The notes under the pieces: model-generated | What the model was told of the DNA's origin: nothing | The model's input: only the letters and a program-made list of their open reading frames with translations | Database searches by the model: none | Part shown: piece by piece, positions 13,425 through 30,005 of the stretch | Layout of the letters: every line of letters starts with the position of its first letter | Position numbering within the stretch: position 1 is the stretch's first letter | Made by a program: the position numbers and the translations under genes | Virus genome (UHGV): UHGV-0305822 | Source of the DNA: a virus | DNA length: 64,000 nucleotides | Reading direction: 5' to 3' (one strand)

Positions 13425-16400
13425 TTAAGATGTAAACATAAGATTGAACTGGAGCTTATCGATATCGCGCGTTTGTGCTGGGTTAACCGCGTCGTACGTG
13501 GTTGCCACGTAGACCGTTAATGTCCCGTCAGCAAACGAGGTTTTCACCGGTGGCGTAGTCCCTGTCTGTCCATCAGTTACAATGACGACAGGTTGAGACG
13601 GGAGTTGATGGAACTGACCCTTAACCGCTTTATACACCAAACCAGATTGCGCTGCTAACTCCGTGTCGGTATACACGATAAACGGTGTGTCGATATCTGT
13701 CTGTTTAATGACAGTGTTCGACTCAACGTCAATCAGCTGAACAGCACCGAACTTCGTACGGTAGCTATCGTATTCATTTTTTGGAATGACAAACGTAGCA
13801 TGTACACGGACTTCTTCGGCGGGCTTAAATCCGGCGTGTTCTTTTTCCAGATAGCTGTTAGCAGTTAACGTTACTGTCTGTTCAGTCATCGTACCACCAG
13901 ACTGGTTTAACCCGTAACGAACTTGGGTTATACCTGTCGGAGCCGCAAGCCTGATTTTTAGTCTACGGTTAGCGGTACCAGGATCGCCTGGCACTCTAAC
14001 ACGCAGGCTCAAAGCCAGATATGCATTCGCACCGGTAGTCGGTTTCGTATACGCACCCAACCACTTCATATTCGCGGTTGCCGCTTGACTGTTCTCAGAA
14101 GCAGTAGCCGCTGCAACGTTCGCAGCAACCGCTTTCTGCCAGAACTGGTCAGCGCAGTTTTCATACGCTACTCTACCGATACTTTTATAACCTGCGTAGG
14201 TTTCCTGTATCGGCAACTTGGGACGTGTTGTGATCCCGCTCAACGCATTCCATCTCTGACCATCGACATACCCTGCACCATTGCTCGCAGATGCCGTGGG
14301 GGCTTTCAGCGGTTGGTTAACCAAGGTTTGAAGTGGACCCGTTTTTCGATCGTACGCCGCCGCAACGTCGTGCTGATCTCTAACGGCAGCGTGTTCTTCT
14401 AATTCACGAACCCTGCCTAGCCGTTTCACTTTATCGATGTTAATAGCAACAATGCGCTTTTTATCGGTTGTAACTGTACCAACAAATAATCGCGAAGTCG
14501 TATCCGGCAGCTTTTCCAGCCCGATCTGATATTGAGCTTTCGAACCTACAAGAGCAGCATGAACATAGAACGTCTGGTTAGCATGGTTTTCTGGGAATTC
14601 ATTGCTTAAATCCACCGACCACGTCGGTAATGTATAGCTATTACTACCGAAATCTAACCTGACCTCTTCCGTCAAATATAGAATCCAGCCTTCCGCAGTC
14701 TCCACACCGGCGATAATAACCGCCTCCCCCCCAGTTGAGAACCTGGTGTCATTAACGAACTCTTCGGCTGTATATGCGTTACCTGAACAGAAGACACGAT
14801 CTGCTTTAGAGAAAATTAGTGCCATCTTGTCCCAATTACCCGCTCCCATGTAGCAGCCTGATTCGGGATTATGTGCAGGGGCCATCTGACGCAACTGTGA
14901 CTTACCGGGAACGCGAGTCCAGCCCGACCCAGGGTCGAAGGTGTACTTCGCAGCGTAACCCAAAGCATTTAGGTCCCCGATATTCCGTATTGTCAGCGTA
15001 TAAGGCAGCCATAGACCGAAGTTTACACCGTCGGCAGAAGCAAAAATGGGCTGGCCTACACGTCGCGTTTTATTACCCGCTTCTTCCCTCAGAGACTGAT
15101 AACTTAAGCCGTAATCAAGGTCTAAGAACCAATCAACGAGTTTGAAAGTAGCCGAGTTAAAACGTAGATAACCGTTTTCTTTGGTCGGGCTCACCATGAA
15201 GTAATAGATGTCGAGGACTCGACGTCCGTTACTCAGGATTTTCATACATGAGACTTGTAATAGGTCGAACTCACAAACAGTGTTAATGCCTAGCAACCAG
15301 AGCGCAAACAACGCGTTGCCGCTTTGGTGTGCTGCACTGATGCGCTCGTTCGCGTAACCATTTGCCTGACCAGATGGTGCGCCATCGACAATCATCCTAA
15401 TCATCTTCTGGCGATCCGCTTCCTCTAACGTCAGTCGTTCTGATGACAAGGCAAAGTTACCGTAGATGTTCCGATATGGGAAGGTTTCCGCTTTCGTCAA
15501 ATACCAACCGTTTAATTGCCCGTGACGCTCCTCAGGAGTCATGCAAGCAGCCATACAGCTTAACTGTTCGTAAAGGGTTGCATCAACTTCTCGACGGTTG
15601 TTGTTCGGGCCATAACCGCTATATCCGGGAACGTCATAAGGTTTACTTGGGTCAACTTCTACTTCGATCGTATAGCGGTTACGCGGATTGGATAACCATA
15701 CTTTGTTTGAGCCACCGATACCGACAGGATGAGAAAGACCAATGGTATAGATAGAACCACGACCTTTATCCCAAGTAAATGTCGCTTCGCCTGAGGTATT
15801 GTTTGGGTTATCGTAACGCAGATAATCAAAAAACTCTTTGCCTTGCGTACTTTTAATAGTAACATTCGGCATCTGGTCCGCATCGTTAATCTGCCAGCAG
15901 GAAAGCATCATTCCTGAGACATTAGGTTTAGCATACGTCGCAAAACAACGATTGTTTGCTTGGCCGCCACCCCACTTACGACTGGTTTCTACAGTTGAGC
16001 CATCCGCGAACGATAGTCTGGTAGTATCAACCTTAATGGGGAAACGTTCGGCACCCTCTAACGTAACTCTGCCCGTTAACGTATCGATTGTGAAACTTGT
16101 TGACCATTGACGGAAATTAATCGTCGTACCGTCGGCAGCCGCAAACCACACGCTGGGGACATGATTCACACGAATAACGCTGTCGCGTACCGCACAAGCA
16201 TGGTTACATTCTGGACCGTGAACAAAGTTGTGACCGATTGTCCATTTAGCCCGTGCCTCTGGCGGGTAATACGTAAAGAACTGACCAGTCTGCGACTCTT
16301 CGGTCTTCTGGCCAATTCTTAGGCAGAGGTTATCTCCGAATTGCCCCATTTCTCCGGTTAGGGTTACACGTTCAAATTCTAACTCAGTATTGGTAGTCAA

Positions 16401-18608
16401 ATCGGCTTTACGTAAACGCCATGCCGCCACGGCATAAGCAGAGTTATTTACCGTGGAACGAAGAAGATAAACGTGATCGTCAACTAACACAACATCGTCA
16501 GCTTCTGGCCAAGGATTCCAGGTTTGTTCCACAGTACCGCTGGGGTTGCCATTACGGTATTTAGGCATTGTAACACGACATACCACCGTGTGTTTACTGT
16601 GGTCCATTGAACCATTGAACAACACCAAATAACGGTTATTATCAGAACCCAGACAAATAATCGCTTCCTGACCACCAACCAATATCGCTTTTAAGGTCAC
16701 TCCAGGATATTTACTCATCCCAACGGGATGGTATTTCACCGAAGTTTGCTGAGGGTTCACAAACACATTCGACGTATTGATATCAGCATAGCCGTAGTAA
16801 ATAGCCTCTGTACCAGGTACACCATTAGAAGCATTACGTAACGAATAAACTTTACCTTGTTGGAATCCTACAACGCCTTTCTGATAGGACTGGTTCTTTG
16901 TAAAACCTGAATAATTACCGAGTGCCGGAATGGGTAAGAAGTTTTTGTTACCGAACTTCGCCCCACCGACAGTCCACGCAGGTAAGATGGTATTCAGTTT
17001 ATCAGAGACTTTCTTAATCTCTTTTGCGAACAACCAGCCTTGACGAGACGTGACGGCTTTATCGCTCGTGGTATCAATCGCATCCCACAACTGTAAGATA
17101 CCATCCACAGTCGCGCTGCCAATCGGGACATTATCCAAATCGGCGGTAGTGTGCGTGTGCTCCTTCACACTTTTATTTTTCAGCACGTTCGCTAACGCTT
17201 TTGTTACCGGTTTAGCGATCGGCATGGTGTTATCCATCTTATCGATACCGAAATCGGTTTTCGTTAAGGTTAACACCATTTTATCGCCCGTCTTAACAAA
17301 CCCTTTACCGTTAACCGTGTAGTCATCGTCAACGTACAAGTCTAACCGGTCTTTTAACTCGGTCACCGCCTTTTGGGAAATAGCAGTGCCTAGTGCTACG
17401 GAGGTTGCGATATTCGTAATCGAAAACACCCCATAAACCGACTCGGTTGCTGTGGGAATATTCGCGTTCAACGTTAGCGGGTTAGACTGCTTCGCTGTAC
17501 CGTATGGTTTTACGGTGTCTGATGGTTTGAAATAGGCATTTGCTTCAAGTAACGTTACAGACGTCAGGTACATGTTCACCATTTCTGGTGTAACCAAATA
17601 CACAGAGTTGTAAACCGGCGCTAATACATCCTGTTCTGTCCCAGAGTGCACCCAAAGCGTATTCAGTCCCGCACTAAATTCAACCGCCAAACCCGATTCG
17701 TTGTTGTCCTGGTCCGCTTTAATCACTAGCGGTTGCGGTGAGGTAATTAACCACTTATCACCACGGATACTGATGATGTGTCCGCCTGCGGTTTTAAACG
17801 TCAGTTCGTTACCGTTCGTGCTACCCCATCGACCGTAAACAGTGCCGAGGGCTTCACCCATTAACTGATCAACGTCTGATTGCTCAATACCCGCCGAACC
17901 CATCAGCGTAGCCAACTCGTCAATCGTCAGTCCAAACGCTTTTGTCGCGTCAACAGCACGTCCCAAAACCGGAAGGGCACCAACATCAGTGGTCGTATAC
18001 TGGTGTGCGTTAGGATTAAGGTGGTGTTGGTATAACTCCTCGTCGAAAACTTTTTTACCGTTCTCGTAAATCAGGTTAGTGACTTCGGTAAACGCTGCAT
18101 CTAACTCTGTTGAACGTTGAACGATTTTCTTACGGATGTCGTTTAACGCTTTAACAACCTCATCCCTCAGAATAGCTTCTTCTAAGTTAGCAGGGGGATC
18201 GATAGGTTGTATAACCGGTGCATACGCCATTAACTCTGACCAGTCCACGTTACGTGGGTCTTTCAGGTCAGTACGAACTAAGAACTTTCCGATTTCAGAT
18301 TGTGGTACACGATACTGGCGTGCTACCCCTAAAATCTCATATTCGATTTCTGTTGCGGTCAGCAACATAAACCCGCCATAAATCTGATCTTGCTCAGCTT
18401 CTGCGAGTTCTTTAAAGTAATAGCCTAAATAGTAGTCCAACCCCTCAATCAGAGTACGACGTCCGTTAGGCGCGGTATCGTCGGCTACTGTGAGTTTTAA
18501 TCCGATACGATAAAAAGGTCCTTCAGGCGGAATGACCACATTAAATCGGTTAGGGTACGTCGCTGTGCTTAACGTACCGTTAAACTGCGCCGCGTCTTCT
18601 CTCGGCAT
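13425..18608 (-). CDS. large tail fibre protein (1727 aa)
   Basis: N-terminal PPEGPFY ... EGLDYYL anchor-like motif; internal fibre-repeat-like segments (ATESVYGV...KAVTELK). Confidence 0.65.
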   Translation of the reverse strand: MPREDAAQFNGTLSTATYPNRFNVVIPPEGPFYRIGLKLTVADDTAPNGRRTLIEGLDYYLGYYFKELAEAEQDQIYGGFMLLTATEIEYEILGVARQYRVPQSEIGKFLVRTDLKDPRNVDWSELMAYAPVIQPIDPPANLEEAILRDEVVKALNDIRKKIVQRSTELDAAFTEVTNLIYENGKKVFDEELYQHHLNPNAHQYTTTDVGALPVLGRAVDATKAFGLTIDELATLMGSAGIEQSDVDQLMGEALGTVYGRWGSTNGNELTFKTAGGHIISIRGDKWLITSPQPLVIKADQDNNESGLAVEFSAGLNTLWVHSGTEQDVLAPVYNSVYLVTPEMVNMYLTSVTLLEANAYFKPSDTVKPYGTAKQSNPLTLNANIPTATESVYGVFSITNIATSVALGTAISQKAVTELKDRLDLYVDDDYTVNGKGFVKTGDKMVLTLTKTDFGIDKMDNTMPIAKPVTKALANVLKNKSVKEHTHTTADLDNVPIGSATVDGILQLWDAIDTTSDKAVTSRQGWLFAKEIKKVSDKLNTILPAWTVGGAKFGNKNFLPIPALGNYSGFTKNQSYQKGVVGFQQGKVYSLRNASNGVPGTEAIYYGYADINTSNVFVNPQQTSVKYHPVGMSKYPGVTLKAILVGGQEAIICLGSDNNRYLVLFNGSMDHSKHTVVCRVTMPKYRNGNPSGTVEQTWNPWPEADDVVLVDDHVYLLRSTVNNSAYAVAAWRLRKADLTTNTELEFERVTLTGEMGQFGDNLCLRIGQKTEESQTGQFFTYYPPEARAKWTIGHNFVHGPECNHACAVRDSVIRVNHVPSVWFAAADGTTINFRQWSTSFTIDTLTGRVTLEGAERFPIKVDTTRLSFADGSTVETSRKWGGGQANNRCFATYAKPNVSGMMLSCWQINDADQMPNVTIKSTQGKEFFDYLRYDNPNNTSGEATFTWDKGRGSIYTIGLSHPVGIGGSNKVWLSNPRNRYTIEVEVDPSKPYDVPGYSGYGPNNNRREVDATLYEQLSCMAACMTPEERHGQLNGWYLTKAETFPYRNIYGNFALSSERLTLEEADRQKMIRMIVDGAPSGQANGYANERISAAHQSGNALFALWLLGINTVCEFDLLQVSCMKILSNGRRVLDIYYFMVSPTKENGYLRFNSATFKLVDWFLDLDYGLSYQSLREEAGNKTRRVGQPIFASADGVNFGLWLPYTLTIRNIGDLNALGYAAKYTFDPGSGWTRVPGKSQLRQMAPAHNPESGCYMGAGNWDKMALIFSKADRVFCSGNAYTAEEFVNDTRFSTGGEAVIIAGVETAEGWILYLTEEVRLDFGSNSYTLPTWSVDLSNEFPENHANQTFYVHAALVGSKAQYQIGLEKLPDTTSRLFVGTVTTDKKRIVAINIDKVKRLGRVRELEEHAAVRDQHDVAAAYDRKTGPLQTLVNQPLKAPTASASNGAGYVDGQRWNALSGITTRPKLPIQETYAGYKSIGRVAYENCADQFWQKAVAANVAAATASENSQAATANMKWLGAYTKPTTGANAYLALSLRVRVPGDPGTANRRLKIRLAAPTGITQVRYGLNQSGGTMTEQTVTLTANSYLEKEHAGFKPAEEVRVHATFVIPKNEYDSYRTKFGAVQLIDVESNTVIKQTDIDTPFIVYTDTELAAQSGLVYKAVKGQFHQLPSQPVVIVTDGQTGTTPPVKTSFADGTLTVYVATTYDAVNPAQTRDIDKLQFNLMFTS

Positions 18609-18621
18609 CGTAAAGACTCCT

Positions 18622-18664
18622 ACTTTTAAATAAAATGGATACCCCTCCCCATTACAGGGAGGGG
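18622..18664 (-). terminator. terminator hairpin between 1401-aa and 1727-aa fibre genes
   Basis: Stem CCCCTCCC/GGGAGGGG followed on minus strand by ATCCATTTTATTTAAAAG. Confidence 0.5.
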
Positions 18665-18702
18665 TTACCTACGGACACACAACTGCCCGCAGGCAGCCTG
18701 TC

Positions 18703-21700
18703 CTAAGTACGATCCCCTAACTGCTTCCCGTTAAGTTCTCGTTTCAGTACAGCCAAAATCCACTTCCACGCTTTACTCGTGATGTGGTACGGATTGCGTT
18801 TCTCCATTAAGAATTGACTTTCGCCGCTACGGAGTTCGAAGCTCTGCGCATTGAGTTGGTCTTGGCGAACACCGTTCTCGTCAGTGACATCTAACGAACA
18901 GGTAAAGTTAAGCTCGTAGCCCTCTGGATTATTGCCTGGTGGTTCTAAGACAATATAAATGTCCTGTCCTACACGTAGGTCCTTTGGCGTAAGGGTAACT
19001 GCTTTACCTGTGTCCGCGCTGGTCGAAAGCGCAAACGGCACGCTATCGATAGCTGATACATACGCGTCCTTCCCAGCATCGCCGATAATCACCTTACCCG
19101 GCCAGTTACACTTCACCGTTCCTGTCACTTTTGCAACACGGTACTGCTGTTTATCAGCACCTTGTGCAAAGCGTAAAATGAGTTTATGCCGATACCGGTT
19201 TGCGGCAGCTTTGGATGTACTCCACTCATTGTTCCAGGAGGCATGAAGTTCACCTTTCTTGGCCATCAAAGCACCACGAGACAGCTTACGTGGGAAGAAT
19301 TGTGCCGGAAGTTGCCCTTCGTGGGAAATCGCTACACTCCCTTGTCCGGTTGGAAGTGCTATTGTTTCAGTAGGGCAATAATTTAACTCGTACACGTGTG
19401 TTGTAGGATCGATCAATTTCTGATAGTAATCGCCGTCCTTACTGTCCGCTAACCAACCAACGGAAGAGTCCGTATACGATTCAAACAGTGAACGTAAATA
19501 GTGATACTTATCGATATCGATGTTACCCGTTTTTGGATCGATCAGTGCATGGTTAATAGTGAGGAAACACTTCTCACTCAAACCATTAAACGCCAAGCCC
19601 ACGCCGTCACCGGTAAAATAGTCTACCAGGTCAAATGGAAGCGTCATTTCTATTTGTCGCAAGTTGATAGTCGTTGAACCAAACTGCGAAAAAGATAGCG
19701 CTAAACGAAGTACACGAGTATTAACATTATAACGATAACGAATCATCCCACGCGGCGCATGGTTCGCGGAGATCTTATCACCGTTTGGACCCCACCCAAT
19801 TAAATCGAGTATTTCGGCGTTTGCTACTTCACCATTAAACAAAACGTCTTTAGTCGTGATTTCAACTGACGTTTCCCTTCCGCCATCCATTAACATCGAA
19901 CCGTTATTCAACTCGAAGCTCTTGTGCCAAACTTCAGAAGTCGAGCCAGCACCTACACCCACCTTACAAGTTTTACTAGTAAGGTTAATACGCACATAAC
20001 GGCGTCCCACTGTACCGCCCTGCGAGCTTGCACACAAAATAAGATCAGGTGCCGCAGACAGTGCCTTGGTCCCTGCAATGTCATCAACATCGAAAACGAA
20101 TGAGCCTTCGAACGTTGGTGCGTTATTTTCCTTCGGGTTAAATGGCGTGAACCAACAATAAGGCGTCGCGCCCTCGGTTGAGAAAATCAACTCTAAGTCA
20201 GATTTAACATTTAATCCGTGGGAATAAGAAAAAAGACCGCGACTTAAGGTACAAAGCGTTCCACCGCTTCCGCTACCTAAGGTTTTTCGATATATTAAAG
20301 CGCGGGGTTCTGGGATAGCACGGTTTAATAACGGCAACCGTGGGTTATCCGTTAACGTCCAGTCTACAGAACTGAGTCCGTGTGCTTTACGAGCGTCGAT
20401 GTGCTCACTAACCTCGGTACTTTTCCCGAAATCAAACGTGGTTTCAAAACTCACGGTTTTATTCGAGTAAGATTCACCGGCAACAATATCAACGTAGCCG
20501 ATATAACCGCGCTCAGGGTCAACTGCAATACTCTGAATTGGCTCAGTACGCGAATACAGAGAACCTGTGAGCATGTTAACGTACAGATAATGACGAATGC
20601 CTACGTGTGTTGTAACGAACTCTTGGAGAAACTCTACGTGCGTTTCAGGGCCACTGAAATAAACGGGGTAGTCACCGTCGTAAACTTCGAATTGCACTGC
20701 TGCGGATTTAGCCGTGTCGCTACACTCAGCTTTAACCGCTACGGTGTAGTTTTCAACGTCTGCTGATGTTTCATACACTGCAACAAGCGGAGACTGGCCT
20801 GTGGCTGCCTGGATACCGTTAATGTAAACTGTAACCGGGCCACCCCCTGCGGCATAAACCCAAAGCTTCGGCTGGCGTGCCCTTACCCGCGTTTTGGCCA
20901 ACACAGTAACAACTGACTGGTCACCCATCTGTGAGGCAGTTTTACCTACCGGAACAGATTGGAAACCCATTAGTGGTGGTTCTTCAATACCTGTCCAGTT
21001 AATGCCCTTACCAGCGCTCACTTTCCCCGTAGGCCAGGTCGTCTCAATTTGGTTGTTCGGTGAGAACCAGTTAAACATCGGCGTAGTTTGCAGGTCAATC
21101 GAACCTGTAACGGCGCTATCAGCTTTCGCACCGTTCAGCAAATAGAAATATTTCAAATCTTGAACGGAGATTGCCGTACCCTGACTATTAAAACGCCAGT
21201 CTGCACCTTTTACCGCAGCAAAATCCGTTACCGACCCTTCTTTCGCGTTCGCAATCGCCGCAGCAACCACATCTAAACGCGCCGAAAGTTCTTTTAAGAT
21301 GTTCGGTACCACTGCACGGTTTTCAACCAAACCGTTCTGGTTAGTTGCGTACCGACCGATACCGTAAACGGTTTGCGAGGCTTTATAAATGCCTAGTTCC
21401 GACCAATCGTGGTGGTGACCTGCATCCGCTAAACCACTAAGCGCCGTATTTAACTCGGTAGACAACGGCTTGTCAACGTCTGCGGTGTTATCCGCTTGCC
21501 CTAACCCCAGATCAGCTTTCGTGATTGTCCTGGAGCCGTCATTCATCGGCTTACCGTTAATCATGGTCGTTTTAGCCACATACCCCGATAAGTCGGTCGA
21601 GTATGGTGCTAACGAAGCCGGTGTTGCAGCAACCCCAGTCGTTTCTGTACCTTTACCTGTTTTAAGTTTAGCGACGCCTTTTTCGGCGGTTGTCGCTTTT

Positions 21701-22908
21701 GTTGGGTCGATAGTCCCCACGATAGGGTCGGCGCGAGAACCTTTACCGGTAAAGCTAATCCCATTACGACCTTCAATGTACACCTTCGAATCGTCAGGGT
21801 CGCCACCGCCACCAGAACCCGCATCTGGATCTTGTTGGTATTCCATCAACGCCGTGGTGGTCAGTAACGGGTTACCGTTCAGGGTGAGTTTGTTCATCCC
21901 TAAAGCATCGCCTGTTGACTCGATGCGTAATGTGTTTTTACCGGCACGCCAGTTGATATAACGTCCTGCACCTGTGCCTTCCAGATGTCCTACCGCTAAT
22001 ACCACAGAACCGTTGGATTTTAACGTAAAACCATCGTTGGCAAAAATGATTTCTGACTCACCGTTTTTCGAACGGAACTGTGCGCGGTTTCCTGACACCG
22101 TACAGTTAAACACGCCCCGTACTTCCGAAGAAATCCAGTGAGAGATATACGTGTCGATAACTGACTGGGGTAAACGAAACGCTTTCAGCTCATCCGTCAG
22201 TGCTTTCAACTTTAACCCGTACGCCATAAAGGTGTCGGGCGTTTTCAAGTTAACAGGATGCGCGTTAATCTGCGCGGATGTGGTTTCGTGCGGGTTCTTC
22301 GCTGCGATATGTGCTGGGTAGTTAAATGCTTCGATTTCTTTACCCAACGCAGTCACTAACGCTTTAACTTCAGCTAATTTGTCTTTAATTAGCTGGTTAG
22401 CGTCGTCGGTTTTCAATTCAATATCGTGAACTGCCGACGCTAAATATTTTTTGTTCAGCAAATCCGCCCAGGACGTTGCTGCTGGCGTCGCTGGATATAA
22501 CGATGGTCTACCGTCTAATAACAACCAGTCAGCACTGACTGGGTTATTCAAATATTTCACCAGTTCATCGAGAATGTCAACAAACGGGTCGTAGAACGTA
22601 CCGCCGAGCATTTGTCCTTCAAAGGTTACGATACCCTTGATGGATGGGTTGATAAGGTGTACCCCACAATACACGTTGGCTGCTACCGAGTCATCCAGTT
22701 CCGTCAGCTGATATTGCAGTTCGTAGTCCACCCCACGACTCAGTGGGGTGGTTGAACCTGGTTGTCTGACGACCAAATCTTCAAAGAACGGGCGGTGGTC
22801 TAAAATCACCACCCGATCGTTGTTGTTCTCTGACCCGATGATACGCTCCTCTAAGAAGTGATTCTCGGCTTTCGTCCCCCGAGGATCGTAAGGATACGCT
22901 TTCATCAA
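18703..22908 (-). CDS. large tail fibre protein (1401 aa)
   Basis: N-terminal HRPFF ... GVDYEL motif; ATTAEKGVAKLKTG...AATPASL resembles the phage fibre repeat A[ST]xxxxG..[KR]LAT...AVTP..L. Confidence 0.65.
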   Translation of the reverse strand: MMKAYPYDPRGTKAENHFLEERIIGSENNNDRVVILDHRPFFEDLVVRQPGSTTPLSRGVDYELQYQLTELDDSVAANVYCGVHLINPSIKGIVTFEGQMLGGTFYDPFVDILDELVKYLNNPVSADWLLLDGRPSLYPATPAATSWADLLNKKYLASAVHDIELKTDDANQLIKDKLAEVKALVTALGKEIEAFNYPAHIAAKNPHETTSAQINAHPVNLKTPDTFMAYGLKLKALTDELKAFRLPQSVIDTYISHWISSEVRGVFNCTVSGNRAQFRSKNGESEIIFANDGFTLKSNGSVVLAVGHLEGTGAGRYINWRAGKNTLRIESTGDALGMNKLTLNGNPLLTTTALMEYQQDPDAGSGGGGDPDDSKVYIEGRNGISFTGKGSRADPIVGTIDPTKATTAEKGVAKLKTGKGTETTGVAATPASLAPYSTDLSGYVAKTTMINGKPMNDGSRTITKADLGLGQADNTADVDKPLSTELNTALSGLADAGHHHDWSELGIYKASQTVYGIGRYATNQNGLVENRAVVPNILKELSARLDVVAAAIANAKEGSVTDFAAVKGADWRFNSQGTAISVQDLKYFYLLNGAKADSAVTGSIDLQTTPMFNWFSPNNQIETTWPTGKVSAGKGINWTGIEEPPLMGFQSVPVGKTASQMGDQSVVTVLAKTRVRARQPKLWVYAAGGGPVTVYINGIQAATGQSPLVAVYETSADVENYTVAVKAECSDTAKSAAVQFEVYDGDYPVYFSGPETHVEFLQEFVTTHVGIRHYLYVNMLTGSLYSRTEPIQSIAVDPERGYIGYVDIVAGESYSNKTVSFETTFDFGKSTEVSEHIDARKAHGLSSVDWTLTDNPRLPLLNRAIPEPRALIYRKTLGSGSGGTLCTLSRGLFSYSHGLNVKSDLELIFSTEGATPYCWFTPFNPKENNAPTFEGSFVFDVDDIAGTKALSAAPDLILCASSQGGTVGRRYVRINLTSKTCKVGVGAGSTSEVWHKSFELNNGSMLMDGGRETSVEITTKDVLFNGEVANAEILDLIGWGPNGDKISANHAPRGMIRYRYNVNTRVLRLALSFSQFGSTTINLRQIEMTLPFDLVDYFTGDGVGLAFNGLSEKCFLTINHALIDPKTGNIDIDKYHYLRSLFESYTDSSVGWLADSKDGDYYQKLIDPTTHVYELNYCPTETIALPTGQGSVAISHEGQLPAQFFPRKLSRGALMAKKGELHASWNNEWSTSKAAANRYRHKLILRFAQGADKQQYRVAKVTGTVKCNWPGKVIIGDAGKDAYVSAIDSVPFALSTSADTGKAVTLTPKDLRVGQDIYIVLEPPGNNPEGYELNFTCSLDVTDENGVRQDQLNAQSFELRSGESQFLMEKRNPYHITSKAWKWILAVLKRELNGKQLGDRT

Positions 22909-22918
22909 AAAATTCTCC

Positions 22919-25900
22919 TTAATCGCGAATGATTACCGCCTGCACTTTATTGTTGGTGTCGATAAACGACATTACGCGCTCCTTGTTAAGATAAGGAGGT
23001 ATCGGTAACGCAGCGTAATCCGCCAGGTTGTTATTAAATTCAGTTGCCACTAACGCATTAAGCGTTTCAGGGTCTGAACTGACACCGGTCAATTCCATAA
23101 CGCGCACACGATTTAATGAGGAATAGTTGCTAATATAGTCTAACAACGTACCATAGACTTTATTCGCGGTTGTGCTATCTGCCGTAGAACGGATGTTGGC
23201 ACGAACTTCATCCTCATAAAGTCCCCCTAAACCGTAGTAAATAGGGGTATACGGATCGTTAACGATAGGTGCGATATTGAACCCTGTTAGACGGTCAGTT
23301 AGAGGGATTTTCTGCGTAGCTCCCCCTGCTGCCGTGCAACTTACGTATTTATCAGTCGCAGATAAAAACACCACGATGGTATACGTAGTGCCCGCTAAGG
23401 TCAATGTTGCGTTAAACGTTATTGCGTTATTTGCAGCACGGGTGTGGGTAAACGTTACGTCAGGTTGTAACGTATTCCACGGCGCAGGCGTAACACGCTT
23501 CGTTGGTGTGAAACCTAACACTACCGATTTCCCGCTACCGAAGTTCAAACCGAACCCTGCGTAACAATATTCACCGTTGCTGTCAGTTAAACGATAACCA
23601 CGAGTGATAAGTAACGACAACCGCATAAACTCGCCGTCGGTGTTTTTCCAACAACCTAAAACAGTTTCTAGCACCGTGCCGGTTTTTGCGTTGCTTTCTG
23701 TTTCCCAACTTACCCGCATTCCTGCGTTCTTAAAAGCTGGGAACATGTTGTGGATAAACCCGTGTAGGTTATCGCTTACCCCTTTCGCGTCAAAAATCCA
23801 CTTGGATGCGAGCTGGTCGTATTTCACCCCGTCTAAAGCTTTATACTGCCCACCGGCAACATAACGCCAATCTGCTTCACCGCGTACTACTGCCTGGAGT
23901 CCAGAAGCCCAGCAAGGTGCGCCTACCGTTAAGTTAGCTAACCCAAGCGTTGCACGTGACGCGGAGCGCTGAATGTGTGCGTTGTCATCGGCTTTATGAT
24001 CTTTCAGTTCACGGAAATCACCCAACCGTGTGACATTACGCATCTCCGTAACGAACACCTCAGAAATGTCGTTAACACCAATCAACCCTACACGCGTCAT
24101 GGTATCCGTTTCAGCCTGACTGTAGCTGTCGTGGACAATATACTTCGCTTTGTTATCAACGATATCAACAAAAATCCCTGCGTAGATTTCTGTATTCAAT
24201 TTCGGAAAACGTTCACTGACGTTAATCGTCATCAACGGAACGTCGTATGTTTCACCACCGATAAAATACGTTGAAGCTGGAAGCGTGACCAGAATTTTGT
24301 CTTTGACCGTAAGGTCTATTAAGTCGTTACCAGACTCACCAAAACGTATAATGTCAAGACGTGCCTCCGAGTCAACGCCGCTGACAGCGCGCTCCAATTT
24401 TTCAATCTGGGAAGTCTGCGCCATTACCACACTCCCATCGAGTGCTAAAGTCGCATCATCCACATCCAGACCAAATTTAATCAGACCACGTTGCGCTGTG
24501 GTTGCGTTCCCAGTACCAAAAGCGGTAAACGGGTGTTGGTGAACTTTAGGCGAGTATTTATCTAACTCCGCACGTTGTGCTGTAGAAATCGGTAAATCGA
24601 CATCGGGCGTATTCGCAACGTTACCTAAACCAAAGGTAATCTTATCGATAGTAACCGAGCTGGTAAGTTGCATGTCGTTAATGTACGATTTAACTGCAAC
24701 TAATTTACCGGTGAACTCCGCATCGAGTTTTTCAATCAGTGCTGGCGTTGCTGCAAGGTTTTCAGCGGTACCGAACTCATCGGTCAACTGCCAAGCTGCC
24801 AGAGCTGTTGTATCGGTCGCGGTAGGGAGAATAAAGGTCGCTACGAACGGCGAGGCTTTTATCCCGCTACCGGTGATCGTAACCGTTGTTGTCGAGTTTG
24901 CGTAGAATAAACCTGTACCACCTGCGGTATTGCCTGGTAGATACGGGGCCACGGTGGTGGGGTCTAAAAGTTTTTTACCACGCCACTGTAACCCTCGATC
25001 ATCAGGATACAACATAAGCTGGTTAGTACCTGCTTGGAACGTTACGGGGTTGTTACCCACGTTAACATCAGTAGAACCTTGACCGATGAACTTAATGGAT
25101 TTCGGATCAACGACAAACTGAGCGCCTAAACGTGTTTCGTCAACAACATCCGGTGCTTTCTTAATGGTAACCGTGTTACCTTTGTTTTGCGAACTAATGG
25201 TAACGGCGTCGGCAACATTATTGATCAGCGATTTAAAGTGGTGCTGATTCTCTAATGCTTCTAACGCGGCGTCCATGTTATTGAAGTTAATCCGACCGCT
25301 ATACGTTTTACTGTTTACGGTAATAACGACGTCAAACACATTCCCTGTACGCTTCAGTTGAAAACGTAGCGTAAAATCCCCATCCGGTATTGCCGGATTA
25401 GGAGCTTGTGAAATATACCGAACTGCCGGTACCGGACTCCCGTAACCGTGCAACGCCAGTTCGATAGTAAGAGTACCGGACCAGACTTCACCGCTAATCT
25501 CTACGTACTTACCGGAGTTACTACCAGGATTTTCGTAGAAACGTAAACCAACCCTACCGACCGCTTCATTACCAGACGCTGTTTTACGACCAGTAACAAT
25601 AAAGTCTATATCTTGCAGGTTGGCAGGCACCGCATTAAAGTTAGCACTGAAACCGCTTTTCGCTCCTGTGTAACGAAGCGCGCCGTGATATCTGTGACCT
25701 CTACTAACATAGCTTTCGCTAAAATAAGGACTCACGTATTTCGACATCGAAACCGGATCAACTTCCGTCGTGAACGAAGTAAAACCCGGAAGTGTGGTAA
25801 TCGTGCCGTTAACGTTCTTGCTCGCCGATTCACGAAGCAGTTTTTTCTGTGCGGTTAACGTTGCTTGTGTTGGGTACTTAGCATTAACGTAATCCGTTAA

Positions 25901-27241
25901 CTGCTGTTTCGTTTTCCCGTAAGCTAACGCGGCATCCGACGCAATACCATTCAGCTCTAACGCACGGATCGGACCCCACGTATCGGTGTGCGGGTTGTCC
26001 TTACGTGTAACGTGTTCGTGTGCAGGCGCGTTACGATACAGCTGCTCAACTAACTGATGGTATTTGACTATTAACTGGTAGACATCGTTATCGACGTCAG
26101 GTTCTGGTGCGCCGGGTAAAGAACGAATTTGAATATAATCGTTTTCGGCCGCATACCAGTTTAAATTAATGTTCGTTTTAAACTTCAACCATTTAGCAAC
26201 ATCCGTTTTCGAATACCCTGCCGAGAACTCATCAGGCGGTGTATCGACATTGAATGTGTAATCCATGGTCTGTTTATTTGTTTTTACTACGATGACGTAA
26301 ACACCGTTTCCGGGTTGACGGGTTACACTAAAATCGATATCGTTTTTTAACTCATCGTCAGTTAAACCGTTGATTAACGTATAATCGTAGTTTGTTGAAC
26401 CGCTACCAATAGCGACCGTTAAGACCAGTGAGATTTTGCGCTGTTTTAGCTGCAACCGTAGAATACTTGCACCGCCGTTAGCATAACAGAGCATCCAATC
26501 GATCTGTTCGTTTGGATTCAATTTCGTCATGTCTGGCAGAATAGCAGGAATTCTGTGTTTCACTGACAGGGCGTAGTCGTTAAAGGTTGCAGTTTTATAA
26601 CTCAAGCTATAACGATGACGGGTAGTGTTGTAGGTGAAGCCACCTTTATTGTCGTATACGGCATACTGCTCGGAAGTGATAACCTTGCTATTAGCACGGT
26701 ATTCTAAATCCAGGGTATTGCGTGCGATGGGGTTAAGTCGACTCACGACTTCCCCTAACGAATCGCCTAATCCAGCAATAGCCTGCATTAATTCCAGTTC
26801 ACCTTTCCAATTCTCCCAATCGAACTGGATATCGACCGGCGGAAAGTAAACGTCCCCGATGACGGTGTCCCACTGACACGCAGACGGGTATTTATCTTTA
26901 TTGAGTTCGCGTTCTGCGGTAATCTGTTGTTGGGTAGCCTGACCACAACCAACGGCGTGGTAATCTACCGTAAAATTCGATTTGTATTTGTCATTAACAA
27001 TCCAAATCATCCCGTGAATGAGATAGGCTGTGCGCAACATACCGGTCTCGTACGGGTGTGTAATAACGTAATCGTCGCCTAAGGTCAGTGTTTTGCCGCC
27101 GCTCTTGACCACCAGGGATGTGGTGAAAAAAGGGGCGTGGGCAGGTACCAACATTCGGTATTTCGTACCAATGACGGCGACCGCTTCACCGGTTATTTTA
27201 TTCCCCGGTTTTTTGAAGTGTGGGTCTAGGACGACAGCCAT
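22919..27241 (-). CDS. large tail fibre protein (1440 aa)
   Basis: N-terminal HAPFF ... GDDYVI motif; TTAQRGLIKFG fibre-repeat-like segment; only 10 nt from next gene (co-transcribed). Confidence 0.65.
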   Translation of the reverse strand: MAVVLDPHFKKPGNKITGEAVAVIGTKYRMLVPAHAPFFTTSLVVKSGGKTLTLGDDYVITHPYETGMLRTAYLIHGMIWIVNDKYKSNFTVDYHAVGCGQATQQQITAERELNKDKYPSACQWDTVIGDVYFPPVDIQFDWENWKGELELMQAIAGLGDSLGEVVSRLNPIARNTLDLEYRANSKVITSEQYAVYDNKGGFTYNTTRHRYSLSYKTATFNDYALSVKHRIPAILPDMTKLNPNEQIDWMLCYANGGASILRLQLKQRKISLVLTVAIGSGSTNYDYTLINGLTDDELKNDIDFSVTRQPGNGVYVIVVKTNKQTMDYTFNVDTPPDEFSAGYSKTDVAKWLKFKTNINLNWYAAENDYIQIRSLPGAPEPDVDNDVYQLIVKYHQLVEQLYRNAPAHEHVTRKDNPHTDTWGPIRALELNGIASDAALAYGKTKQQLTDYVNAKYPTQATLTAQKKLLRESASKNVNGTITTLPGFTSFTTEVDPVSMSKYVSPYFSESYVSRGHRYHGALRYTGAKSGFSANFNAVPANLQDIDFIVTGRKTASGNEAVGRVGLRFYENPGSNSGKYVEISGEVWSGTLTIELALHGYGSPVPAVRYISQAPNPAIPDGDFTLRFQLKRTGNVFDVVITVNSKTYSGRINFNNMDAALEALENQHHFKSLINNVADAVTISSQNKGNTVTIKKAPDVVDETRLGAQFVVDPKSIKFIGQGSTDVNVGNNPVTFQAGTNQLMLYPDDRGLQWRGKKLLDPTTVAPYLPGNTAGGTGLFYANSTTTVTITGSGIKASPFVATFILPTATDTTALAAWQLTDEFGTAENLAATPALIEKLDAEFTGKLVAVKSYINDMQLTSSVTIDKITFGLGNVANTPDVDLPISTAQRAELDKYSPKVHQHPFTAFGTGNATTAQRGLIKFGLDVDDATLALDGSVVMAQTSQIEKLERAVSGVDSEARLDIIRFGESGNDLIDLTVKDKILVTLPASTYFIGGETYDVPLMTINVSERFPKLNTEIYAGIFVDIVDNKAKYIVHDSYSQAETDTMTRVGLIGVNDISEVFVTEMRNVTRLGDFRELKDHKADDNAHIQRSASRATLGLANLTVGAPCWASGLQAVVRGEADWRYVAGGQYKALDGVKYDQLASKWIFDAKGVSDNLHGFIHNMFPAFKNAGMRVSWETESNAKTGTVLETVLGCWKNTDGEFMRLSLLITRGYRLTDSNGEYCYAGFGLNFGSGKSVVLGFTPTKRVTPAPWNTLQPDVTFTHTRAANNAITFNATLTLAGTTYTIVVFLSATDKYVSCTAAGGATQKIPLTDRLTGFNIAPIVNDPYTPIYYGLGGLYEDEVRANIRSTADSTTANKVYGTLLDYISNYSSLNRVRVMELTGVSSDPETLNALVATEFNNNLADYAALPIPPYLNKERVMSFIDTNNKVQAVIIRD

Positions 27242-27309: not shown

Positions 27310-28572
27310 GTGACTACTGCTTATCAAGTGCGGCCCGACAGCGCTTTTGGCTTCTCTCGAGAGTCCCGTACCTGGGGAGCCATCGATGTCACGCAACCCT
27401 TAAATACGTTGTGTTCAGACTACCACACCTTTGAGATCGGTTTAAGTGCACTTGGTAAAGACTATACGTTAGTCAGCCAATACCATCTTGCCGAACTACA
27501 AAACCGAACAGACACTTTACAAGATTGGTTAAATGAAAAAGCCGGAAACGTCATCCCTACTCTAAAAGCCGGATTGCCGAAACTCGAATTCAGTTGGGCA
27601 CATTACCAATCGATTAATGCCGACGTACCCGTTGAAACGTACCTGTGTCCGCCTGGGTACCACCACAGTCAAGATTTCAGCTTAGACGATGCTGATGACG
27701 TTGTCATCGTTTGTGAGGACAAGTGGAAGGACAAATACCGTAATAGTGTACTGTACAACATTAACGGTCAATGGGTACCGCACCAGACAGATACCGTAGG
27801 TGTCCGATTACCCGGGGCCGGTAAAATCGTACGGAGAGCCTGTACGCCAGATATCGGCTGTATGGTTTTTGGTCAGTTAGGGAATGTTAAAACTTACCCC
27901 ATTGCCAACCTTACCCTAAACAAGCTCGACACTACACGTGACTATTACTCCACGCTAATGATTTCGCTGCCCGAATCTATTACGGGAAAAACGGTGGGTT
28001 TCGTCATCGGTGGACTGTTACGTTGGTTGCCTCCGGGCGGTTATTTCTCCGACCGTGCGATCATGATTTCTTTGCCGAATTTTGATCTTGCTCGGACCGT
28101 TCTGGAAACCCGTCGCTATTACGACTGGGACGCCATCGGTGTGGGTGATTTATCAACGCCTACTAATGTCCAACGTATTCGCAACCCCGAAACATTAAAG
28201 GCGCTTTTACTCCACGAGTCTTCGTTTATCTTTACGGTAGATAATCCGTATTTAGAAGAAGAGGTTGTGGGTGTATCGCATAACGCAGTTTGGGGACGTT
28301 GTTATCTCAAGGACCCTAGCGATCCTGATTCTGAAAAACCATTAGGGTACTTAAATAATCGCTTCGGAAAGACCGTGGGCTATTGGCCTACATGGGAGGA
28401 GGGTGAGTGGGTATTTAACACCACCGAATTCGACAGTCAAAACTACGTCTTTCGTGAAGCCCGGTGGTATAATCAGAAGAAGATTAACGACGCGCAAGCA
28501 ATCGTCGGTCCATTCGGTCCCTGGGAAAAAGTGTATTTAGAAATGCATCGCTTTAGAGCACGAAAAAAATAA
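27310..28572 (+). CDS. hypothetical protein (420 aa), divergent from fibre operon
   Basis: GTG start with GAGGAAAAGAG RBS; 68-nt divergent intergenic region; no motif recognised. Confidence 0.5.
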   Translation: MTTAYQVRPDSAFGFSRESRTWGAIDVTQPLNTLCSDYHTFEIGLSALGKDYTLVSQYHLAELQNRTDTLQDWLNEKAGNVIPTLKAGLPKLEFSWAHYQSINADVPVETYLCPPGYHHSQDFSLDDADDVVIVCEDKWKDKYRNSVLYNINGQWVPHQTDTVGVRLPGAGKIVRRACTPDIGCMVFGQLGNVKTYPIANLTLNKLDTTRDYYSTLMISLPESITGKTVGFVIGGLLRWLPPGGYFSDRAIMISLPNFDLARTVLETRRYYDWDAIGVGDLSTPTNVQRIRNPETLKALLLHESSFIFTVDNPYLEEEVVGVSHNAVWGRCYLKDPSDPDSEKPLGYLNNRFGKTVGYWPTWEEGEWVFNTTEFDSQNYVFREARWYNQKKINDAQAIVGPFGPWEKVYLEMHRFRARKK

Positions 28573-28578
28573 AGTAAC

Positions 28579-28621
28579 CTCCTACCCTCTAAGAGGGTAG
28601 GAGTAGCACGTTTTTTTTTTC
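28579..28621. terminator. bidirectional terminator
   Basis: A-run, stem CCTACCC / GGGTAGG, then TTTTTTTTTT; between genes ending 28572 (+) and 28624 (-). Confidence 0.65.
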
Positions 28622-28623
28622 GC

Positions 28624-28830
28624 TTAGTCTTTTTTGTAGACAATTGCGTTACCGTGCAGTTTGTTGTTGCCGGAAATACCGATAACTTTGAATGCGTCGC
28701 CGCCAATTTTTTCAGCTTCAGCAGCCAGCTTACCCGTTACATGATCAACGGTGTCGCCGAAAGCGCTAACGTTACCGATTTTCTTAAACTCTTCTGGAAT
28801 ATGCTCAGCAGAAGAGAACTCTTTAATAGA
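28624..28830 (-). CDS. DUF1471 (BhsA/YdgH/McbA-like) domain protein without signal peptide
   Basis: C-terminal GGDAFKVIGISGNNKLHGNAIVYKK resembles the DUF1471 consensus (GA..Y.I.S.SG.N...GTA..YK); ATG at 28830 after GGAGAG RBS (ORF track start 28851). Confidence 0.45.
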   Translation of the reverse strand, partial: SIKEFSSAEHIPEEFKKIGNVSAFGDTVDHVTGKLAAEAEKIGGDAFKVIGISGNNKLHGNAIVYKKD

Positions 28831-29039
28831 CATAACAGCTCTCCATTTCAAAAGGAAGGTGGTCTAAGACCGACGTGTGTTACAACCGAAGCATAAGATA
28901 GCTCCTCCCCGTAGGGAGGAGTAGAGTGCGCGAAAAAAGTGGCCTGCTTAACTAAACGATGGGTTTAAGAAAAGTGTTGATAAAAAGCTTTACCAACGTC
29001 AGGTCACAATATATAAACACAACGTAAGAAAAAGGGGAA

Positions 29040-30005
29040 TTATTGCGGAGGTGATGTCGGACCATGTTTACCTTGGTGAATGTGAACGCTAAAGGTAATA
29101 CCGGAAATAATGGCATCTTTAACCGTAAAGACACCCACGCCTTCACCCGTACCACCGTATTTGAAGTTCTTAGCGACTTCCAAATTACCGGTGAACATCG
29201 CTTCATTCCCTTCCTGTTTAAAGTTCGGCGTTTTGAACGTTGTCGAACTGCCCGCTTCTGTTAACCAGGTTTGTGTTTTAAACGTAACGGAATTCGCTGC
29301 TTCCGTATTGCGGACTTCGCATTTTTCATTAATCGTTTTCGTTTCCAGGTTAATAGAGCGCTTTGAATAAATGAACGCATCTTCTTTGTTGATGTTCACT
29401 TTTGAAAGCATCGCATTCTCAAACCCGAGATCATCTTCAACCGAGTTAATGTAATACTTGTTTCCTTTATGGTCAACGCACTGCCACGTACCGTTTGCAT
29501 TATCAAACTGAAACAACCACGCCGCTTTCTCGCCATTCACCATACTTGTTCTTAGCGTGATATGTTTGTCAATCGTCGAAACGTTCAACACATACGCATT
29601 GGACAAGTCATCCGCCATTTGGTTTTCGGGGTCAGCCGACCACGCATAAACCGCATCTTCTAATCGCTTAACGTTAGCGAAGTTCAGATCAATCCAAAAA
29701 TAAATATCGGTTTTCCCCAAACGTAACAAGATAACGTAGTCTTCTCGTTTAACGTCAGGGGAATTAATTCGGTTGGAGTTAAACTTCCACCACTTTGCTG
29801 TTATCGTGTTACCCGTCTTAATGGTTAGGTTATCTGTTGCACCAGATGTTTCATGCGTCTTTTCAGTTGCTGAAGAAACAGATTGCACCACGGTAGGGTT
29901 AGCAAAGTTGGTTTCAATTGGTATCACTTTTACCCGATCTGTACCACGGGGTTTGTCTTCCGCGACGATACCAATTGAGAAAAAATCAACACTGGATTTC
30001 TCCAT
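29040..30005 (-). CDS. putative virion (tail/baseplate-associated) protein (321 aa)
   Basis: First gene of minus-strand structural block; beta-rich composition; placement only, no motif match. Confidence 0.4.
   Translation of the reverse strand: MEKSSVDFFSIGIVAEDKPRGTDRVKVIPIETNFANPTVVQSVSSATEKTHETSGATDNLTIKTGNTITAKWWKFNSNRINSPDVKREDYVILLRLGKTDIYFWIDLNFANVKRLEDAVYAWSADPENQMADDLSNAYVLNVSTIDKHITLRTSMVNGEKAAWLFQFDNANGTWQCVDHKGNKYYINSVEDDLGFENAMLSKVNINKEDAFIYSKRSINLETKTINEKCEVRNTEAANSVTFKTQTWLTEAGSSTTFKTPNFKQEGNEAMFTGNLEVAKNFKYGGTGEGVGVFTVKDAIISGITFSVHIHQGKHGPTSPPQ

Follow-up and report, generated by a model that had tools for sequence, protein, structure and literature searches.

On its minus strand, the 64,000-nt window (the whole stretch of the virus genome UHGV-0305822 that was analyzed) carries a gene at 28624..28833 for a 69-residue DUF1471-fold protein, an ortholog of gp172 of phage SPN3US (PHROG 8068) that lacks a signal peptide. 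We are highly confident that this is a real, expressed gp172 ortholog with the DUF1471 fold. Our preferred reading, to which we assign a probability of about 55%, is that the product is a low-copy tail or baseplate protein of the virion, made from a transcription unit of its own and arriving with the particle at the envelope of the cell infected next.

The reading frame runs from an ATG at 28833..28831 to a TAA at 28626..28624; the first-pass annotation had located the gene correctly but ended it at 28830 and so omitted the start codon. The product has a calculated mass of 7.4 kDa, a pI of 6.3 and zero cysteines. A ribosome-binding site, GGAG (28841..28844, minus strand), reads 7 nt 5' of the ATG, as good a site as had been claimed, and GGAG or GAGG is retained at this position in most relatives. 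Comparison with closer relatives gave dN/dS values of 0.07-0.23, by which measure the gene is under purifying selection. Against the closest relative, the metagenome scaffold L013 (∼97% identical to the window across the DUF1471 locus), six substitutions were counted, five of them synonymous when read in the frame of the minus strand. The open reading frame on the opposite strand (28654..28896, plus), whose expression the earlier annotation had named as counting against its own reading, lies in register with the gene, and 11 of 12 relatives show no stop in it. However, an open antisense frame is unremarkable over 69 codons, since only TTA, CTA and TCA codons need be missing. This frame returns no family match in Pfam and is broken by three stops in Erwinia phage Wellington, substitutions among relatives sit at third positions of the minus-strand frame, and the peptides detected in SPN3US belong to the minus-frame product. 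The probability that the plus-strand frame is the expressed one is negligible.

Assignment to DUF1471, including the C-terminal hallmark on which it was originally based, was upheld by a profile search of the kind that the first-pass annotation had proposed. Residues 17-67 align to positions 2-55 of the 55-position Pfam model PF07338 (YdgH/BhsA/McbA-like, DUF1471) with 38.2 bits and an E value of 1.4e-9, above the gathering threshold of 27, and orthologs reach 43-68 bits. The PHROG 8068 match is full-length (E 4.5e-32, residues 1-69 against profile positions 1-70 of 70). An AF2 model computed from eight phage sequences (pLDDT 89.4) has a β-β-α-β-β layout, and the best PDB matches found with Foldseek were 4evu, 2m2j, 2ma8, 2jna and 2noc (TM 0.73-0.78), DUF1471 structures that comprise the N- and C-terminal domains of YdgH, SrfN and YahO. 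The predicted model has the mixed α+β fold of SrfN, YahO and YdgH, and the 69-residue sequence is colinear with mature YahO; no solved phage structure was matched in the Foldseek search with this model. RcsF, the outer-membrane lipoprotein sensor of envelope stress, is also among the top Foldseek matches (PDB ID: 2y1b, TMq 0.85) and has an α+β fold in common with the window protein, a likeness between the DUF1471 and RcsF folds that has already been published (PMC4092069). Sequence identity to RcsF is, however, 12%, and the window protein lacks both the lipobox and the redox-active cysteines that RcsF requires; the likeness is limited to the fold.

DUF1471 proteins belong to an Enterobacteriaceae family in which one genome encodes many paralogues, and their biochemical function is not established even for the bacterial members, although SrfN binds sulfated polysaccharides (PMC4092069). 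The window protein shares the domain, by HMM and by predicted fold, with enterobacterial BhsA/YcfR, YahO, SrfN, YbiJ, McbA and YdgH, and it keeps their C-terminal hallmark G-N-N-x-x-H-G-x-A-[IV]-x-Y-K. Unlike these proteins, the phage copy has no Sec signal and is encoded by a virulent jumbo phage, and the SPN3US ortholog has been found in virions. GenBank records label the phage copies as ‘DUF1471 domain-containing protein’ (also the RefSeq name of the SPN3US copy) or, in several cases, as ‘multiple stress resistance protein BhsA’. The best NCBIfam match is indeed the BhsA equivalog NF047859, but at 46.8 bits against a cutoff of 90, and confined to profile positions 30-85 of 85, the portion that follows the signal peptide; the 69-residue protein lies under the cutoff of every NCBIfam equivalog. 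Because the NF047859 cutoff is missed, the ‘BhsA’ label of some phage records is, judged by this model, unjustified, and we propose ‘DUF1471-fold virion-associated protein’ for phage records instead.

The missing signal peptide had also been noted at first pass, and this observation stands. The protein starts with an acidic, hydrophilic segment (MSIKEFSSAEHIPEE...), no 10-residue stretch among its first 30 residues exceeds a mean Kyte-Doolittle value of 0.4, and the reading frame can be extended upstream by at most six codons. The signal peptide is absent from all phage copies. A profile built from the phage proteins and run against 1.84 billion representative proteins returned 91 significant matches, of which the four best are 68-78 residues long, align from residue 1, have no hydrophobic N-terminus and lie on contigs of ∼20 to 225 kb, the largest having the size of a jumbo-phage genome. 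Among the 87 remaining, non-phage homologues, 73 have a hydrophobic segment within their first 30 residues, and 14 have the look of fragments, frameshifted calls or proteins with an over-extended start. By this survey, no clear signal-less lineage other than the phage copies occurs among the 91 significant matches drawn from those 1.84 billion representatives. Separately, Salmonella enterica assemblies in NCBI include contigs of 224-225 kb with a CR5-type DUF1471 protein, apparently jumbo-phage genomes co-assembled with, or carried in, sequenced Salmonella isolates.

Evidence for a place in the particle comes from SPN3US, whose syntenic ortholog gp172 was detected by mass spectrometry in virions purified on CsCl step gradients and described as the smallest virion protein, at 7 kDa (PMC5694885). 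Four unique peptides and six spectra gave 81% coverage and a mass-adjusted spectral count (SC/M) of 0.86, to be compared with 0.93 for the portal (12 copies), 1.00 for gp170 and 1.0-1.4 for the baseplate/fibre candidates gp168-170 (PMC5694885). The protein does not carry the label ‘Head’, a list that appears to be based on detection in a tailless mutant, and it was missing from 47(am1) mutant particles; its status was not settled by the authors (PMC5694885). A ‘not head’ reading is weak, since a 7-kDa protein could escape detection in the tailless preparation. These data come from a single phage, SPN3US, whose ortholog is 45% identical to the window protein, and on their strength we consider it rather probable that the window protein is virion-associated. 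The suggestion of the first-pass annotation that the domain had been repurposed in the cytoplasm fares less well, as the presence of gp172 in purified virions argues against a purely cytoplasmic role. A second SPN3US paper contains nothing on gp172, and among the papers searched none connects BhsA or DUF1471 with jumbo phages.

Directly upstream on the same strand, the gene at 29040..30005 encodes a product assigned to PHROG 3216, ‘baseplate assembly protein’, whose residues 4-259 match phiKZ gp164 (PDB ID: 6orj/9xph, E 1.2e-21). A second match, to the apex of the puncturing device Mu gp45 (E ∼1e-3), covers residues 268-320, in which an H-x-H motif occurs. By these matches, the gene is that of a composite central spike (cell-puncturing) protein, with a gp164-like body and a Mu gp45-like apex. 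In the 2026 cryo-EM atlas of phiKZ, gp164 is the central spike, with the monomeric tip gp163.1 on top (PMC13250141). The phiKZ spike thus has a separate PAAR tip and no fused apex, whereas the predicted window spike has the apex fused and should for that reason need no PAAR cap. The gene for gp163.1 (88 residues; PAAR match to PF05488 at 28.7 bits) lies directly downstream of the homologous spike gene and on the same strand, as the DUF1471 gene does in the window, and gp163.1 sits on the spike in the virion; the two proteins are nevertheless unrelated in fold and family, and the likeness is one of position only. Identity of the window protein with a PAAR spike tip was rejected, as there was no PAAR match at E ≤ 1 and the model is α+β, unlike the β-rich cone of PAAR proteins. 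On the other side lies a convergent gene (27310..28572, plus strand; 420 residues, PHROG 3337), the counterpart of SPN3US gp171, whose relatives are annotated ‘virion structural protein’. The statement that the DUF1471 gene sits alone on the minus strand does not hold, since that strand also carries the spike gene just upstream and, on the downstream side past the convergent gene, three giant fibre-like genes.

The isolation of the gene, described at first pass as one between terminators, is supported at the level of transcription: a bidirectional terminator and promoter-like elements, whose function we infer, support a separate transcription unit. The bidirectional intrinsic terminator reported at 28579..28621 is present (28565..28621 with its tails), with an 11-bp stem at 28579..28603, a T-run for the plus strand at 28611..28620 and a T-rich tail for the minus strand at 28565..28578. 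Terminator scanning and folding gave −20 to −22 kcal/mol and z ∼ −3.8 on either strand. The element is common to the DUF1471 gene and the convergent gene and can end both, and its layout of A-run, hairpin and T-run recurs in 11 of 12 loci despite differing stem sequences; in the exception, Wellington, the hairpin alone is retained and a paralog gene comes next. The further hairpin described on the other side of the gene also exists, not at about 28893..28912 but at 28902..28921 (minus strand), where an 8-bp GC-rich stem folds with −18 kcal/mol and z −3.8. It is the only consensus RNA structure that RNAalifold finds across seven relatives, with both-side changes at four of six pairs. The T-run that follows it is clear in the relatives; in the window, unlike in the orthologs, the T-run is degenerate and the hairpin abuts a TATG element. 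We read the hairpin as a terminator-like structure that would end either the spike transcript or a short one from the element P1 described below.

Two promoter-like elements precede the gene on the minus strand. P2 (cTAC-N15-TATGC, 28891..28914) overlaps the upstream hairpin and is conserved in relatives, where (T)TTAC-N15/16-TATGC is found in 9 of 12 loci about 40-70 nt ahead of the ATG. Late promoters of phiKZ read TATG with the G as start, and its middle promoters add AAanTTACc near −24 (PMC4666361); P2 resembles these phiKZ middle and late promoters and fits their spacing, but has cTAC in place of TTAC. By this analogy, transcription would begin with the G at 28892 and yield a 59-nt leader. 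P1 (TTAC-N15-TGTGAC, 29003..29027) begins 12 nt past the spike stop codon; its 25-nt architecture is kept with exact spacing in 9 of 13 loci, the relatives reading TTAC-N15-TRTGAC, and it may likewise act as a promoter. The promoter reading of these elements rests on their conservation between phages and on the phiKZ analogy. As a window-wide promoter, TTAC-N14-16-TATG was discarded, with 8 copies against 7.07 expected and hence no enrichment; three of the eight lie in intergenic gaps and face a gene.

Between P1 and the hairpin lies a conserved 14-nt box, GCCACTTTTTTCGC (28930..28943, minus strand), which is nearly invariant in nine relatives and has divergent flanks; the upstream order in the relatives is P1, box, hairpin with T-run and P2. 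The box occurs once in the window and gave no Rfam match and no consensus fold. With its one copy in the window, the box was not accepted as a recurrent motif; an exact-match scan of IMG/VR returned only single scattered matches in unrelated contigs, which say little either way. Together, P1 and the box could be signs of a transcript of only ∼100 nt, or else of an attenuator or a site where a protein binds. A structured small RNA between P1 and the hairpin was considered and dropped (MFE z −1.2, the hairpin alone recovered by RNAalifold, no Rfam match). A small hairpin in the 5' leader (GGTCTTAGACC, 28861..28871) shows compensatory-looking changes across relatives; L013 lacks a 21-nt segment of the leader that includes it (28852..28872, minus strand), and because this closest relative does without the hairpin, it was rejected as a required element.

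The window comes from a jumbo phage that has SPN3US and phiEaH2 among its relatives. With ∼74% nucleotide identity to the nearest deposited genomes, this phage represents a separate lineage. Searches with tblastn found the DUF1471 protein, at 40-80% identity, in 60 jumbo-phage records from at least five genera, the carriers being Seoulvirus, Erskinevirus, Machinavirus, Wellingtonvirus, Derbicusvirus and CR5; the recorded hosts of all carrier phages are enterobacterial (Salmonella, Erwinia, Escherichia, Cronobacter or Proteus). SPN3US gp172 and its orthologs in Erskinevirus, Machinavirus, Wellingtonvirus, Derbicusvirus and CR5 are, like the window protein, signal-less DUF1471 proteins (68-73 residues), to which it is 45% (SPN3US gp172) and up to 80% (SPAsTU) identical. 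In every locus examined, the spike gene (310-320 residues in relatives, annotated ‘baseplate assembly’) is followed on the same strand by the DUF1471 gene and then by the convergent PHROG 3337 virion gene, with the caveat that locus L141 ends at a contig edge and its spike side is not visible. Loci of the Wellington type hold extra small open reading frames and a second DUF1471 paralog within this frame. This tandem paralog (gp189 of Erwinia phage Wellington, 1787..2347 of locus L008; counterpart at 2806..3381 in L139/L140) has 186-191 residues, with the DUF1471 domain at residues 22-66, no signal peptide and, after the domain, a long acidic tail that is probably disordered. The duplication is retained in two metagenomic relatives.

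Outside this clade, the chimalliviruses Deimos-Minion, EL and Aeromonas D3 have the homologous spike gene followed directly by the convergent gene, with no DUF1471 gene between them, and phiKZ has its PAAR gene there. As chimalliviruses outside the clade have no DUF1471 gene at this place, the gene is, by gene order, a clade-specific insertion. A neighbor-joining tree over 55 columns joined 16 phage orthologs in one clade, supported by 13 of 300 bootstraps; the nearest bacterial proteins are 45-51% identical, which is comparable to the identity between phage subgroups (48-50%), and no bacterial donor stands out in the tree. The phylogeny that the first-pass annotation had proposed as a check on host origin accordingly gives a phage clade, at that low bootstrap support and with a donor that cannot be named. 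Host origin is nonetheless plausible, since transfer from host to phage is the economical reading of an Enterobacteriaceae family that recurs in a narrow, syntenic group of phages on enterobacterial hosts. Synteny and the common loss of the signal peptide point to a single, old acquisition, although the tree does not prove a single origin. Of the earlier proposal of a host-derived domain captured by the phage, the host origin thus remains tenable; a recent or lone capture does not, given the synteny and the 60 records, and the window gene is an added member of an already catalogued phage family and no novel capture.

The virion signal of SPN3US could instead be carry-over contamination by a non-structural cytoplasmic protein that puts the fold to another use in the infected cell, such as the binding of a phage or host factor. 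A protein without a signal peptide is cytoplasmic unless packaged, the signal consists of only six spectra and was absent in one mutant preparation, and the gene has its own terminator and putative promoter and would not be co-transcribed with the spike gene. We nevertheless consider this explanation unlikely, because the SC/M of gp172 compares with those of true low-copy virion proteins, among them the portal and gp170, its high coverage was obtained from step-gradient-purified particles, and the gene lies within the baseplate/tail-fibre block in all relatives examined. A role in assembly, in which the protein would serve as a chaperone or scaffold while the spike, baseplate or giant fibres are built and leave traces on finished particles, would suit the low and variable recovery in virions and the position of the gene, which adjoins the spike gene and lies two genes from the three giant fibre-like genes. 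We think it improbable: the protein bears no likeness to known phage assembly chaperones, its nearest folds are those of periplasmic envelope proteins, and related chimalliviruses build a homologous spike without a DUF1471 gene.

The GenBank name ‘multiple stress resistance protein BhsA’ and the BhsA model as best NCBIfam match would speak for a recently captured host gene (moron) that alters the stress or biofilm behaviour of the host as BhsA does. That account is very hard to sustain when the equivalog cutoff is missed by a partial match, when a signal-less protein cannot reach the periplasm, where BhsA-type proteins act, when the carrier relatives are virulent jumbo phages, and when the gene is ancient and syntenic and has a GC content (42.9%) like that of the phage (45% for the window).

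We therefore favor the low-copy virion protein with its own transcription unit, and picture its history and action as follows. An ancestor of the SPN3US, Erskinevirus, Machinavirus, Wellingtonvirus and Derbicusvirus/CR5 phages probably took up the mature part of an enterobacterial periplasmic DUF1471 protein. The Sec signal would have been left out at capture, and the gene then fixed just downstream of the spike gene. There it would be transcribed from the TTAC-N15-TATG element ∼60 nt upstream, of a type used by phage RNA polymerases and with the G as start, with the upstream hairpin setting the unit apart from the spike gene and the bidirectional terminator closing it. The protein, which in the window copy has no cysteine, would be made and folded in the cytoplasm and packed into virions at low copy number, as suggested by SPN3US gp172 with its count near that of the 12-copy portal. 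As an accessory of the tail tip or baseplate, it may be brought along when the particle meets its next host and bind a component of that host's envelope, as is thought for bacterial DUF1471 proteins. A domain that is normally periplasmic would then need no export signal, since under this proposal the particle itself carries it to the envelope. The location on the tail or spike and the action at the envelope are tentative parts of this picture, in which our confidence is low, and a more specific version, with the protein on or near the central spike and released into the periplasm as the outer membrane is punctured, seems doubtful to us.

The discovery itself is minor, as the family is already in PHROGs and RefSeq and the SPN3US member is already a listed virion protein. 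What a signal-less lineage directly after a spike gene offers, together with the virion detection of one ortholog, is a modestly interesting, testable idea, namely that the particle, and not the Sec pathway, brings the protein to the envelope. If it is true, a phage delivers, via its virion, a copy of a host periplasmic domain of the DUF1471/RcsF fold, which could mimic or block envelope proteins of that fold; possible effects are damped envelope-stress signalling or an outer membrane loosened during ejection of DNA and protein. The phage copies may also help to find out what is bound by the DUF1471 fold, which is still poorly understood.

Two further features of the region deserve mention. 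The three giant minus-strand genes are consecutive open reading frames of 1727, 1401 and 1440 residues (13425..27241) and, judged by nothing more than their size and order, seem to match paralog family C of SPN3US (gp168-170), whose members are candidates for baseplate or tail-fibre proteins; if they are counterparts of gp168-170, the DUF1471 gene falls inside a tail-tip module. Upstream of the spike gene, the segment 30279..31540, which holds a 245-residue open reading frame without a match in PHROG or Pfam and also the 5' portion of the following frame, does not align with L013, where ∼460 nt take its place and the surrounding region is 89-94% identical; it is a variable or replaced segment.
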